Assembly: GCA_029856145.1 (NCBI GenBank)
Contig: JAHQWK010000002.1
Span: 1-64,000 of the forward strand
DNA: 64,000 nt
Reading direction: 5' to 3'
Origin: Promethearchaeia archaeon
GTDB taxonomy: Archaea > Asgardarchaeota > Lokiarchaeia > Sigyniarchaeales > SOKP01
Translations under genes and position numbers: made by a program
Shown here: positions 52,901 through 60,865 of the stretch, piece by piece
How the letters are laid out: every line of letters starts with the position of its first letter
Numbering within the stretch: the stretch's first letter is position 1
Notes under the pieces: model-generated
Databases searched by the model: none
Told to the model about the DNA's origin: nothing
The model's input: the letters and a program-made list of their open reading frames with translations, nothing else

Positions 52901-53605
52901 TATGATGTCAGAAATGCCATTATATTATTAACAATCAGCAAGAGACCGATAACTATGGATTTGAGTGCTACAGGATTATCTGGTAATAGAGTAAATATTG
53001 TTCAGGGGAGATTGATTAATTTTAGTATTATTCTCACTGATGAGACTGATGGAATCCAATCATTAACTGGAGCAAATGTAACATTATGGCTCAATGGAAA
53101 TGATATTTCAGTGGATGAAGTTCTTGGTTCACCTGGGACATATGAATTAATCTTCCCTACTGGCAATATAAATGCCTTCTTTATGCCTCAAACATTAACA
53201 GGTCAAATCACAGTGGAATTAGAAAATTACGAGATAGCTCCAAGATCTATTACAGTTGTAGTAGGAATGACAGAAATTTTCCCTGGATTTCCAATGTTTT
53301 ATTTCTTGCTAATAGTAGGGGCAGTAGTAGCAGTAGCGGGTAGTTTAGCCGCATATCGCATGATTCAAAGAGCTCGAATCCCTACATTTGTGAAAAAAGT
53401 AAGGCAGATGAAAAGTATTATCAAATCCAAAAAGACAATTTCAGATTCGCTTCTATATCCTTCAAAAGAGGAATATATCATAAAGAATTTAAGAGATAAA
53501 TGGGATCAACTTGGATTATCATTAGAAGATATTTTAGGTTTGGAAGAAAAGAAGAAGAAGAGTTTGCCAGAATTTACAGGAGAATATAAAACAGGTGAAG
53601 AATAA
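49931..53605 (+). CDS. Giant single-pass surface glycoprotein, copy 1 (DUF2341-like N-domain, CBM-like head, beta-sandwich stalk, TM, cytoplasmic tail)
   Basis: Signal/anchor, WWNNSWNFR, many NxS/T sequons, TM FYFLLIVGAVVAVAGSLAAY, ~75-aa basic tail. Confidence 0.85.
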   Translation: MIKMNISKNTQIKGLSVLFLITIIPLIFGLLPNSNVNLDNSVESGQNQEPKNLQLGLPPTSYDWWNNSWNFRVPVSIEAVGSQQEAPVELYINFTEYFDDLDIQDSVLNISTIRVIEYFSSSSYYEVESQFDPYLNSYDSQTNAAGDLIWILNGTTPNGQIRDFFIYFNNGTDFKITDPNYDTIRLWHEGFEDYQSGDIVRPIDGQDNYHPTFWEISNSTSARGSSSLRIWGNCWKMSPTGSMPVNSDMRVTAKMRFDDPSIQREISGIGFDNSPNNIPSSANSYNIRGSQSWGAAGGYKFRNQYYAANTFFWYTFIPSTEFSLSPFTHIVYVADDDSWTSLDLYWDDISIWNKPVQTTPNNSIQTTMGDIQPIAYTLKVICKDEDSNRVSNAHIYLTNNNFPSYNQDHETDENGEWTFEGIEKDALYNITANYTQNGLTNPKTATVFSYENYPITQLNNRIIAYLNLAKFNFDIKDKDNDSIQYGFVLLKDGTETVGKTVLSDSGTGSITWVNTTAYDYEAYYDYDSLPDISTYRYSNLLIHNNSIISKDIDVNTEITKTTFNVTDSTVEKVPFTNAKLRFYNTSDYDIEHQIIANVTVDINGLATFISFSNTYGTWGDYTVDIYFGGSEQDFHVVGGPPLVHEHDFILRTENYTQIEIPLNKDLYNSTVNIISYTSNVFWGDDITINFNFTAQYPLGPTPTLVDPDELTIQMYEEQITPYGGDVDILASRISTGVFSYTFNTGDFNLNGDSIYYFRITGNYKSYVFIALDVKFIFIQGLPTGITYYDYSLTELTDQRFSVIFGESVNITVDYFNSYTNASLDGAYITYDWDYGSGILLDDPLHADLYYFEFDSSTTPNSAEYIIDIEATLTNFSTIDDSIIVAIQPRPTTINGTATLFQKSPNIYVFDSVNYLFEYKDALRDITLGNLDVIRYYWNRLDENGDPLSGSGNEGSGFLSSGPNNLYILDFDTELREVGEYSLFVTMQKNNYDVRNAIILLTISKRPITMDLSATGLSGNRVNIVQGRLINFSIILTDETDGIQSLTGANVTLWLNGNDISVDEVLGSPGTYELIFPTGNINAFFMPQTLTGQITVELENYEIAPRSITVVVGMTEIFPGFPMFYFLLIVGAVVAVAGSLAAYRMIQRARIPTFVKKVRQMKSIIKSKKTISDSLLYPSKEEYIIKNLRDKWDQLGLSLEDILGLEEKKKKSLPEFTGEYKTGEE

Positions 53606-54708
53606 TGCCAATTGGATTAGTTGTAATGAGATGGAATGAGAGAGTGGGTACTGAATTACTGAACAAGTATCCTGAAGAAATGGAAATAACAGATAAGACA
53701 CTTATGCAAATATATAGTACTCATGAATACAGTGGAGAATCTGGGTTGGTTAGTTTAATGATTGGATCCTTAAACATTGCTTCTTACTACACAGGCCCAG
53801 AAAATGAATACTATGTAATTCTCCTATTAAATATTGATGAAGATCCAGATTCTTATGAAGAAGGTTTAATAGACGTTTCTCGAATTATTATACAAAATTT
53901 AGATGGCGATGCTTATTTTAAAATGATACCTTCTATTTTTCAAAGATTATCTGTGTATCCTACCCTTAATATTGAACAGAAACTTGCATTCACATATTAC
54001 GATAAGGTTAAACGGATGATTATTAACCGTTTAAGGGAAGATGGTGCTGTATCTAAATCAGAGATTACAATCTGGTTAAAGGATCAGTATAAACAAGGTT
54101 TTCTCAATATAAACGCAGATATAATGGAATTAATTAAACGTGATATAATTAAACAAGTATCTGTAAAAGGAGTTCCTTCAGAATTAATATTTCTGATAAA
54201 CGACATCGTATGTATGCGTGTTCCACCCGTGAAATTAGTGAAAGATCCGTTAGATCGCGGTTTACCTTCTAGACTAGTAGAAAATTATAAAACAGAAGTT
54301 AAAAAATTCTTTCTAGACTATAATCCTACAGAGGCAGATAACTTAAGGGTATTAGATGTTCTTACTAATCCTCAAGCTTATGAAACTCTACGTTTATTAA
54401 GAACTGCAATTGTAACGAGGAATGATCTAGAAAAGCTAAGAAAGAAGGGTATAGACGATCTCGATAATATATTAAAAATGCTTTGGGAAACTCAAATTGT
54501 GCAAATCTTTCGGGATGAAAACGAAAATGAATATTATGCACTTCTTTCTGATTTTTATTTAGATCTGATATTCCCCAAGTATCTAATGAATGTTATAAAA
54601 ATGAATTATATCAAGAAATCAAAAGCCGAACCAGTTCTGATAGAATATCTCACTATACTTGAAGATAGTTATATTAATAGAAAAGCAACAAGAAAATCTA
54701 AAACATAA
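53605..54708 (+). CDS. Cytoplasmic longin/uDENN-like plus tandem winged-helix protein, copy 1
   Basis: LVVMRWNERVGTELLNKYPEE N-terminus; two wHTH-like segments; TAATG coupling with GGTGA RBS inside the upstream gene. Confidence 0.75.
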   Translation: MPIGLVVMRWNERVGTELLNKYPEEMEITDKTLMQIYSTHEYSGESGLVSLMIGSLNIASYYTGPENEYYVILLLNIDEDPDSYEEGLIDVSRIIIQNLDGDAYFKMIPSIFQRLSVYPTLNIEQKLAFTYYDKVKRMIINRLREDGAVSKSEITIWLKDQYKQGFLNINADIMELIKRDIIKQVSVKGVPSELIFLINDIVCMRVPPVKLVKDPLDRGLPSRLVENYKTEVKKFFLDYNPTEADNLRVLDVLTNPQAYETLRLLRTAIVTRNDLEKLRKKGIDDLDNILKMLWETQIVQIFRDENENEYYALLSDFYLDLIFPKYLMNVIKMNYIKKSKAEPVLIEYLTILEDSYINRKATRKSKT

Positions 54709-59753: not shown

Positions 59754-60865
59754 TGCCTATAGGATTAGTCATAATGAGGTGGGATATAAAAGTAAGTACA
59801 GAAATCCTTGCTAAATATCCTGAGGAACTTATTATTAGTGATGAGACTTTAATGCAAATCTATGCAGCACATGAATATACAGGAGAACCAGGCATGATAA
59901 GTTTATTAGTTGGACCTTTAAATATCGCTTCATATTACACAGGACGAGAAAAACCACTTTATATCATCTTACTGTTGAATTTAGATGAAGATGCTGATAC
60001 CTATGAAGGAGGTTTATCAGACATTTCACGGGTAATATTCCAAAATTATGAAGATAATGCCTATCTGGAGATGATTCCGTTTCTATTCCAACGTTTATCT
60101 ATATATCCTCATTTGAATGAAGAACAAAGTTTAGCCGTCACCTTTTCAGATAATGTAAATCGATTGATAATAGAGAGATTAAGAGAAGAGGGGGTTATTA
60201 CTAAATCAGAATTAAAGATATGGTTAAAAGATAGATATAGAGAGGGCTTTTTTGATGTTGATGCAATTTTAATGGAATTAATTAAAAAAGAAATAGTAAA
60301 AGAAACATCAGTAAAAGGAATGCCTTCTGAATTAATCTTTCTTATTAACGATCTTTTCATGATAAGAAGACCTCCAATTAAACTACTCAAAAATCCTGTA
60401 GAACGTGGACTTCCGGAGAGATTTCTCGAGGAATACAATGTTGCAGTAAGAAAATTCTTCCAAAAGTATCGTCCCTCAGAAGAAGATAATATTAAAATTT
60501 TAGATGAAGTTATTGGAGACCCCCAAGTCTATGAAATTCTGAAACTTCTAAGAATTTCAATTGTTACTAAAAATGTATTGGAGAAACTCCGTAAAAAAGG
60601 TGTCGATGATATAGATGGAGGCTTAAAGAAATTATGGGAAAATCAAATGATTCATGTATTTCAAGATAGTAAAGGAAATGAGTACTATGCTTTAATTTCT
60701 GACTTTCATAATTCAATAGTTTATCCTAAATACATGTTAAATACGATTATTTATCAATATAGAGTAAAATCAAAATCAAATAGTGTTTTGATCGAATATC
60801 TAAATGTTCTTGATGATAATTATCGATCTATAAAATTTAAAGCTGAAGTACAGGAAGAAGAATAA
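59753..60865 (+). CDS. Cytoplasmic longin/uDENN-like plus tandem winged-helix protein, copy 2
   Basis: Colinear paralog of 53605-54708 (MPIGLVIMRW, NIASYYTG, SVKGMPSELIFLIND, LEKLRKKG, EYYAL.SDF); same TAATG coupling. Confidence 0.75.
   Translation: MPIGLVIMRWDIKVSTEILAKYPEELIISDETLMQIYAAHEYTGEPGMISLLVGPLNIASYYTGREKPLYIILLLNLDEDADTYEGGLSDISRVIFQNYEDNAYLEMIPFLFQRLSIYPHLNEEQSLAVTFSDNVNRLIIERLREEGVITKSELKIWLKDRYREGFFDVDAILMELIKKEIVKETSVKGMPSELIFLINDLFMIRRPPIKLLKNPVERGLPERFLEEYNVAVRKFFQKYRPSEEDNIKILDEVIGDPQVYEILKLLRISIVTKNVLEKLRKKGVDDIDGGLKKLWENQMIHVFQDSKGNEYYALISDFHNSIVYPKYMLNTIIYQYRVKSKSNSVLIEYLNVLDDNYRSIKFKAEVQEEE

Follow-up and report, generated by a model that had tools for sequence, protein, structure and literature searches.

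A longin/winged-helix protein encoded with giant surface proteins and an Arf-like GTPase in Lokiarchaeia: a possible non-catalytic adaptor of NPRL2-like build

Introduction

The proteins NPRL2 and NPRL3 (Npr2 and Npr3 in yeast), subunits of the GATOR1/SEACIT complex that acts as GTPase-activating protein (GAP) for RagA, are built from a longin domain followed by two or more winged helices (PMC3747258), or by a winged-helix triad (PMC3521125). Two genes of a lokiarchaeial genome, P0001 (copy 1, 53605-54708, + strand, 367 aa) and P0002 (copy 2, 59753-60865, + strand, 370 aa), encode proteins with a similar succession of domains and are the subject of this analysis. They lie in what we call the window, that is, the whole stretch of 64,000 nucleotides analysed, which forms the beginning of contig C2 in a genome of 3.55 Mb, so that C2 positions share its numbering; the homologues of this genome bear Promethearchaeota/Lokiarchaeota labels. 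Longin subunits of GAPs bear two marks, a GP motif before strand beta2 and an arginine finger between beta4 and beta5 (PMC12290439; 10.64898/2026.01.05.697756).

Other longins act on GTPases of the Arf family: C9orf72 is the non-catalytic subunit of the C9orf72-SMCR8 ARF GAP, and SRbeta, a GTPase of that family, is bound by the top surface of the monomeric SRX longin (PMC3747258; PMC4686813). In Asgard archaea, an NPRL2-like family (longin plus NPRL2-type C-terminus) is reported in most Thorarchaeia and a few Lokiarchaeia genomes (10.1101/2020.10.19.343400); longins with the GP motif and the arginine (GP/Arg longins) are also known, and the GTPase clients of those that are GAP-like are left open (PMC12290439). 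Cultured Lokiarchaeia, moreover, carry unexplained surface densities (PMC9834061). The present finding is of interest less for the resemblance to NPRL2, which had been published before. To our knowledge, Asgard genomes encode dozens of small GTPases and of longin proteins, almost none of them with an assigned partner. Coupling to surface proteins or to a longin-fused Arf-like GTPase is not reported in the available portions of 10.1101/2020.10.19.343400 or PMC12290439, and a literature search for a module of receptor, longin and GTPase in Asgard archaea found nothing relevant. In the reading favoured here, to which we would give an even chance, copies 1 and 2 are non-catalytic longin/winged-helix adaptors within a module composed of a surface protein, the adaptor and an Arf-like GTPase.

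Results

Both open reading frames (ORFs) have the limits assigned to them in the preliminary description and contain all the motifs quoted there, including YTGPEN in copy 1 versus YTGREK in copy 2. AlphaFold2, run for copy 1 on an alignment of 119 rows drawn from genome matches and from the 614 hits of a profile search among 1.8 billion representatives, gave a model with a mean predicted local distance difference test (pLDDT) of 92.5 and a predicted template modelling score (pTM) of 0.86, in which residues 4-120 have the longin topology of two strands, a helix, three strands and two helices, and residues 134-197 and 256-313 form two alpha-beta-alpha-alpha-beta-beta winged helices. The NPRL2-like layout proposed earlier (a longin, then two winged-helix units) is thus borne out by the model and by the structural matches, and at the two points on which that proposal had been made to depend, residues 1-115 and the C-terminal part, the model does place a longin and winged helices. 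On the DNA, the longin of copy 1 (residues 1-120, delimited by DSSP on the model) occupies 53605-53964 (+), with a W10-N11-x3-G15 loop, a helix alpha1 that includes H40 and a beta4-beta5 loop of four residues at 53794-53808, and the winged helices, with matches of ArsR/MarR type, lie within 54004-54543 (+); the architecture of copy 2 is the same.

In whole-chain searches with Foldseek, GATOR1 chains came out at the top (E 2e-4 to 1e-3, 320-440 aligned columns), among Mon1-Ccz1 and Fuzzy, although the template modelling (TM) score of these alignments was only 0.18-0.24, with a root mean square deviation (rmsd) of 18-24 A and 6-13% identity; the comparison with known structures that had been suggested as a check therefore upholds the ranking and not a similarity of the entire chain. 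With VIA-align, residues 1-120 matched best 8fw5_B (Z 12.2, rmsd 2.5 A, 119 residues), which we take to be NPRL2 from the entry and the chain length, the chain identities in the structure lists being presumed likewise; these lists are full of longin domains, and near ties followed with VAMP7 (Z 11.2), a SEA chain (11.1) and DENND1A (10.8), and lower ranks with Fuzzy/CPLANE (10.2), MON1A (10.0), C9orf72 (9.3) and SRX (8.7-8.8). The C-terminal part modelled alone (pLDDT 95) found its best VIA-align matches in winged helices of ArsR/MarR type (Z 7-8.6), and no GATOR1 chain was present in its top 50 of Foldseek (where no match had E <= 0.001) or of VIA-align, an absence that does not prove that the folds differ. 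In the ESM Atlas, the NPRL2 cluster reached a TM score of 0.38 to the adaptor model, residues 121-320 resembled HTH_20/ArsR clusters of 192-207 aa (TM 0.58-0.64 by target), and feature searches returned unnamed Asgard clusters only.

Searches of Pfam, NCBIfam and PDB sequences with each copy, with profiles of the family and with the GP/Arg paralogue discussed below gave no NPRL2, NPRL3, FLCN or DENN match, the two copies having no match of any kind in these collections; the Pfam family NPR2 (PF06218) matched neither copy, nothing in their own genome and nothing over the cut-off in 251 Asgard genomes, 9 of which have partial matches below threshold. Winged helix 2 gave profile matches to PH1932, HlyU and AdcR (best E 8e-5), and Pfam HTH_5 was found in 9/24 members. 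According to the models, a longin with two winged helices is the confirmed fold, beyond chance resemblance, and since GATOR1 chains are the best-ranked solved structures, a distant relationship is plausible.

The two marks of a catalytic longin are absent. The family has a loop motif W10-D11-x3-G15 (W10 84-92%, D11 76-78%, G15 92-94%; 84%, 76% and 92% in 75 non-redundant members), which begins with WN in copy 1 and WD in copy 2; instead of GP, the copies have G15-T16 and S15-T16 respectively, and among the same 75 members Pro16 is found in 19% and no arginine is conserved anywhere in the longin. The beta4-beta5 loop, of four residues in the Lokiarchaeia copies, holds an arginine in 4 of 104 close homologues, in agreement with the caveat, already expressed in the preliminary description, that no arginine there is common to both copies. 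Three candidates for the finger were considered: (i) Arg65 of copy 2, located in this loop, was rejected because it is not conserved and is absent from the listed contacts of the complex model described below; (ii) R13 (arginine in 40-49%) was rejected, as the lysine in its place, K13, touches residues 126, 172 and 192 of the GTPase and lies away from the P-loop; (iii) R205 and R266, conserved arginines, lie in the C-terminal part.

A full-length paralogue of 398 aa, P0273 (C20:84202-85398, or L060:6203-7399), has both marks in the form of FHRKIGP and WxRGN, invariant in 26 Lokiarchaeia sequences of its family. The profile-profile alignment between the window family and that of P0273 extends over 350 columns (probability 99.7, E 1e-25), and a gap of 8 residues in the window family falls exactly at the Arg loop of the other. 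The P0273 gene is divergent from a GTPase gene 1.8 kb away, and unlinked to the surface-protein array. Because it keeps the GP motif and the Arg loop that the window family lacks, P0273 is, judging by sequence, the better candidate for an NPRL2/FLCN-like GAP, and the window proteins are its Arg-less relatives, which we do not class as NPRL2 because these two defining features fail. In other words, the earlier claim that they are archaeal relatives of NPRL2 survives as regards the layout and the top rank of GATOR1 chains, and is lost as regards equivalence to the catalytic subunit.

Each copy is preceded by the gene of a giant surface protein. Surface protein A (49931-53605, +, 1224 aa) has an N-terminal signal/anchor, an Ig-like ectodomain, 25 N-glycosylation sequons, a single transmembrane segment (~53294-53350) and a basic tail of 84 aa with a RIPxxVKK motif; surface protein B (55380-59753, +, 1457 aa) has the same build and tail motif, 35 sequons and its transmembrane segment at ~59442-59498; and surface protein C (1288 aa, +), with a LamG/ConA domain in its ectodomain, begins at 62490, continues past the end of the window (64000) to C2:66356 and overlaps a third adaptor copy (C2:66356-67471), just outside the window. 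In all three local pairs, the stop of the surface-protein gene and the start of the adaptor overlap as TAATG. The tails of the local surface proteins are basic and of 83-84 aa, with a charge of +9 and +12 over their first 45 residues. Local identity is 30-35% for the ectodomains, 41-59% for the tails and 59-70% for the adaptors, copies 1 and 2 having 59% identity along 357 residues. Between units A and B there is a decayed copy (54749-55224, +) of the methyltransferase gene found at 49150-49782 (blastn 74% over ~460 nt; tblastn in two frames), which points to tandem duplication of the unit; copies 1 and 2 are tandem duplicates of recent date, each of them coupled with a surface protein of its own.

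The coupling extends beyond the window. A gene with the tail motif is directly upstream in 30/30 of the closest loci (close kin, and so not independent), in the genome itself the 5 tail-motif proteins are all found at the two loci closed by a full-length WD-type copy, and the motif, as [RK]IPxxVKK, is kept beside the family in Odin-, Atabey-, Thor- and Lokiarchaeia. In genomes G210, G204, G132 and G240, and also among representatives of 50% clusters, ectodomain, transmembrane segment, tail and adaptor module are fused in a single ORF of 2100-3000 aa. Longin residues 76-97 are acidic in every member (mean -5.3), and this patch on alpha2 is a candidate site for the basic tail.

Two further arrangements were observed. 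A fourth, distant WD-type copy (C3:158145-162502, L061) follows two smaller single-pass proteins (532 and 543 aa) with the same tail motif, and overlaps a gene of 650 aa. Genome G210 has at least 5 tandem fused genes of ~2650 aa each (ectodomain, transmembrane segment, tail, adaptor) at C9:430-465 kb (L032, L033).

Convergent to copy 2 is P0274 (60933-61970, - strand, 345 aa), a longin-fused Arf-like small GTPase (longin 1-120, G domain 124-275, C-terminal helical tail), which matches Pfam Arf at 4e-19 versus Gtr1_RagA at 1e-5, and has intact G motifs (P-loop, WDxAGQ with the catalytic Gln179, NKQD). Its presence or absence by family nearly coincides with that of the adaptor. In 10/10 Jord- and Freyarchaeia genomes among the matches listed, the adaptor is immediately followed by the best relative of P0274 out of 15-35 candidates, and the two are adjacent in eight families, which include Loki-, Hel-, Atabey-, Thor-, Jord- and Freyarchaeia and the families f13 and f27. 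The preliminary description had looked to Rag-like GTPases for the partner; this is not supported, the Arf-like GTPase being the one with linkage in several Asgard classes and with a prediction of binding. A Rag/Gtr-like gene does exist 5 kb upstream of copy 1 (47503-48438, +; Pfam Gtr1_RagA 3e-15), and is not favoured as the cognate client because its synteny is kept within the genus only.

A complex of P0002 with P0274(1-282), GTP and Mg was predicted with an ipSAE (interface score from predicted aligned errors) of 0.69, against 0.00 for the best of three controls, which is a pass; the pass mark, reached by 58/80 solved and 2/110 mismatched pairs, is a rough one here, given our own alignments and the ligands present. 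The runs share at least 93% of contacts, with a partner pLDDT of at least 85. Longin residues 12-15 and 30-42 (nt 59780-59878), that is, the top face made of the beta1-beta2 loop and helix alpha1, contact GTPase residues 124-126, 157-163, 172/174 and 182-192, corresponding to switch I/beta2, the interswitch and switch II, and neither the beta4-beta5 loop, the P-loop, W10, D11 nor Arg65 is among the contacts listed. The interface is conserved on the longin (G15 94%, Y/F37 94%, M34 65%) as well as on the GTPase (I157 89%, W174 84%, L185 74%). The latter three we take to be the equivalents of ARF1 I49, W66 and L77, of the Arf effector face. The pass supports binding, as far as a model can, but falls short of proof.

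With regard to distribution, a search with P0001 gave matches in 182 of the 251 Asgard genomes, among them all 54 of its own family, the 5 remaining ones of the order and every one of the 59 in family f8 (Thorarchaeia), as well as Hel-, Odin-, Atabey-, Jord- and Freyarchaeia; many genomes have one full-length match only, and the named records among the matches are all hypothetical or generic winged-helix proteins. With the family profile, nothing but generic winged-helix hits came from a Borrarchaeum genome, two Heimdallarchaeum genomes of a single contig each, another genome of Heimdallarchaeota and one further genome, so that the family was not found in these. A copy 69% identical, with an upstream tail motif, on a 2.5-kb contig labelled Heimdallarchaeaceae (G205:C317:737-1834, L023) is probably a misbinned Loki contig. 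The superfamily of the window may include the Asgard NPRL2-like proteins already published, although the window family differs by its presence in every sampled genome of Lokiarchaeia (54 + 5) and of Thorarchaeia (59), and in being without GP motif and Arg finger in Loki (10.1101/2020.10.19.343400).

Discussion

If the favoured reading is correct, the module could operate in the following manner: (i) the fold is that of a longin with two winged helices; (ii) a giant single-pass surface glycoprotein, genetically coupled to the adaptor, is produced along with it and would bear it on its short basic cytoplasmic tail; (iii) the top face of the longin is predicted to bind the neighbouring longin-Arf-like GTPase, with GTP and Mg, at both switches and the interswitch; and (iv) the adaptor, preferring the GTP-loaded form, would recruit or hold the GTPase at the tail of the surface protein. 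Having no arginine finger, the adaptor itself would not trigger hydrolysis, and with the GTPase held at the tail, the GTPase cycle could control the placement, clustering or signalling of the surface proteins. The winged helices would serve as a protein scaffold, and not as DNA binders. From our own residue mapping, the face predicted on the GTPase is presumably the one used by Arf effectors.

The SRX longin of SRalpha with SRbeta offers a parallel, in that an Arf-family GTPase is bound, at a membrane, by the top surface of a single longin (PMC3747258; PMC4686813), the adaptor side of the comparison being predicted; in contrast, homology is limited here to the longin fold, P0274 is soluble and has its own longin, and the anchor would be a separate or fused surface protein. 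With NPRL2 and NPRL3 the adaptor shares an N-terminal longin followed by tandem winged helices, and a size similar to that of NPRL2, but it has no GP motif or Arg finger, two winged helices as against two or more, or three, no Pfam NPR2 match, an Arf-like and not a Rag GTPase linked to it, and a surface protein coupled to it; a partner like DEPDC5 did not turn up, no search having been aimed at it.

Several points weigh against the proposed adaptor. Firstly, GTP and Mg were imposed in the model, so that an effector, an exchange factor for guanine nucleotides (GEF) and one half of a GAP are indistinguishable from it; the pass may be owed to a resemblance to longin-GTPase complexes already solved, and the mark is also within reach of a close cousin of the true partner. 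Copy 2, the one modelled, has a serine at the otherwise conserved G15. Secondly, the sampled fusions form one clade (Shimodaira-Hasegawa-like approximate likelihood ratio test, SH-aLRT, 97) and would probably derive from one event. Thirdly, in Thorarchaeia the receptor-linked and the GTPase-linked copies are different paralogues, and in Jord- and Freyarchaeia no surface protein adjoins the adaptor; the three-part module is thus not universal. Finally, some distant members have a longer beta4-beta5 loop with an arginine, as LRG in Atabeyarchaeia and in family f13 and VRE in GTPase-linked Thorarchaeia, so that this trait varies within the superfamily, in a direction that the unrooted tree does not give.

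An alternative explanation, rather unlikely in our judgement, is that the adaptor is the non-catalytic half of a longin-dimer GAP, as C9orf72 or NPRL3 are, which would hold the GTPase while a second longin, for example P0273, gives the arginine finger. The spacing W10-D11-x3-G15 is that of C9orf72 W33-D34...G38-P39, as given in PMC12290439, and C9orf72 holds ARF1 while SMCR8 supplies Arg147 (10.1101/2021.04.13.439632); likewise the adaptor has no Arg finger, has a client of the Arf family and uses its beta1-beta2 loop and helix alpha1, P0274 keeps its catalytic Gln179, and the same genome, like others across Lokiarchaeia, has a full-length homologue in which FHRKIGP and WxRGN are invariant. 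Nevertheless, this GP/Arg paralogue scores strongly at full length in Lokiarchaeia only, and, being unlinked to the array and near a different GTPase gene, is only a candidate partner; switch I, touched by the modelled longin, is in the ARF1 complex bound by the longin of SMCR8 alone, the catalytic one (10.1101/2021.04.13.439632); and W10 and D11 are absent from the listed contacts. Unlike C9orf72, moreover, the adaptor ends in winged helices (pLDDT 95) and not in DENN, has proline after the glycine in 19% of the family, and matches C9orf72 with a Z of 9.3. As a separate observation, the receptor-linked copies of Thorarchaeia have WD-x3-GP, exactly as C9orf72; distant members with this motif or with the Arg loop (L040:8878-9966, L151:7085-8215, L154:7352-8488, L152:6936-8102) are, from sequence, candidates for C9orf72-like or catalytic versions.

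It is less probable still, and in our opinion quite unlikely, that the adaptor is a longin-type GEF that acts on the Arf-like GTPase in the manner of Mon1-Ccz1, TRAPP or DENN, with the surface protein as its switch. GEF longins come close behind GATOR1 in the structural ranking (DENND1A, Fuzzy/CPLANE and MON1A), longin platforms are more often GEFs than GAPs (PMC3747258), and absence of the GP motif is linked to non-GAP longins in PMC12290439; against this, the adaptor has neither DENN nor a second or third longin lobe, it docks confidently on a GTPase loaded with GTP and Mg, even though that state was imposed, and no residue contacts the P-loop in the model.

The C-terminal part raises a further possibility, which we consider improbable: a membrane-tethered transcription regulator, whose winged helices would bind DNA once freed from the receptor tail, with the GTPase as switch. 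Winged helix 2 does resemble ArsR/MarR/HlyU by fold and by profile (the best E and the HTH_5 matches given above), and residues 121-320 are like the HTH_20/ArsR clusters of the Atlas. But the similarity of winged helix 2 to ArsR/MarR regulators (PH1932, HlyU, SmtB) is weak at the level of profiles, the winged helices stand in tandem behind a longin, and no metal or DNA sites are apparent; both recognition helices are net acidic (net positive in only 9% and 21% of members; median isoelectric point 5.2), several genomes have the module in fusion with a membrane protein, and the most conserved C-terminal residues (E124, Q125, D200, R205, P207, F236, Y239, L265, R266, P324) lie mostly outside the recognition helices.

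The remaining alternative, an archaeal NPRL2/NPRL3 pair in which the two window copies heterodimerise as GAP for the Rag-like GTPase, would agree with the domain order, the top structural matches, Arg65 of copy 2 and the Rag-like gene upstream, but appears extremely unlikely, because an arginine in the loop is so rare among close homologues and Arg65 is no listed contact, the GP motif is missing, the copies are recent tandem duplicates without catalytic marks, each with its own surface protein, so that such a heterodimer is not supported by their sequences, many genomes have one full-length match, the Rag gene is syntenic within the genus only and Pfam NPR2 stays below its cut-off throughout the Asgard genomes.

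Returning to the adaptor bound to an Arf-like GTPase, the locus offers a matched longin-GTPase pair for testing, supported by gene order in eight families, by phyletic profiles that are nearly identical and by a complex prediction that passes and names residues, and it ties this pair to giant surface proteins. If the binding is true, an Arf-like GTPase would be the target, at a prokaryotic membrane, of a longin/winged-helix protein of NPRL2/3 build, and a single archaeal genome would contain that build in both catalytic and non-catalytic versions. A bolder construction, which we think unlikely as a whole, would see here an Asgard receptor-coupled GTPase switch, with variable giant surface proteins, an NPRL-like adaptor on the tail and a dedicated longin-Arf-like GTPase, and a longin/winged-helix superfamily already split in Lokiarchaeia into Arg-finger (NPRL2-like) and Arg-less WD (C9orf72/NPRL3-like) subunits, together forming a GATOR1-type heterodimeric GAP at the cell membrane.

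Additional observations

The same genome has other relatives of the adaptor: a divergent longin/winged-helix protein of 417 aa (C29:16566-17819), a longin-only protein (C3:11135-11512), a longin with one winged helix (C4:29086-29742), a longin with a coiled coil (C3:171074-172120) and, beside other GTPase genes, the same longin fused to a small GTPase (C3:174333-175688). P0175 and P0188 (~1020-1046 aa) have the adaptor module fused at the N-terminus to a region that looks like SIR2 (LVGAGIS / LVGSGIS).

GTPase paralogues found beside fused receptors (L034:18266-20000, L037:1288-3342, L037:10681-12672) lack WDxAGQ and have RDFxGD or REFVGE, which suggests altered or dead switches.

The Rag-like gene has no ATG, GTG or TTG start: a putative ribosome site GGTG(A/G) is followed by ATT at 47503, and in 10/11 of its relatives ATT, ATA or ATC stands at this position, mostly just past an in-frame stop, so that the gene probably has an AUH start. 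It is flanked by a small ORF that resembles a ubiquitin-fold protein of the MoaD/SAMP type, ending in GG (47040-47354, +), and on the other side by an ORF like ribosomal protein eS25 (48702-49007, -).

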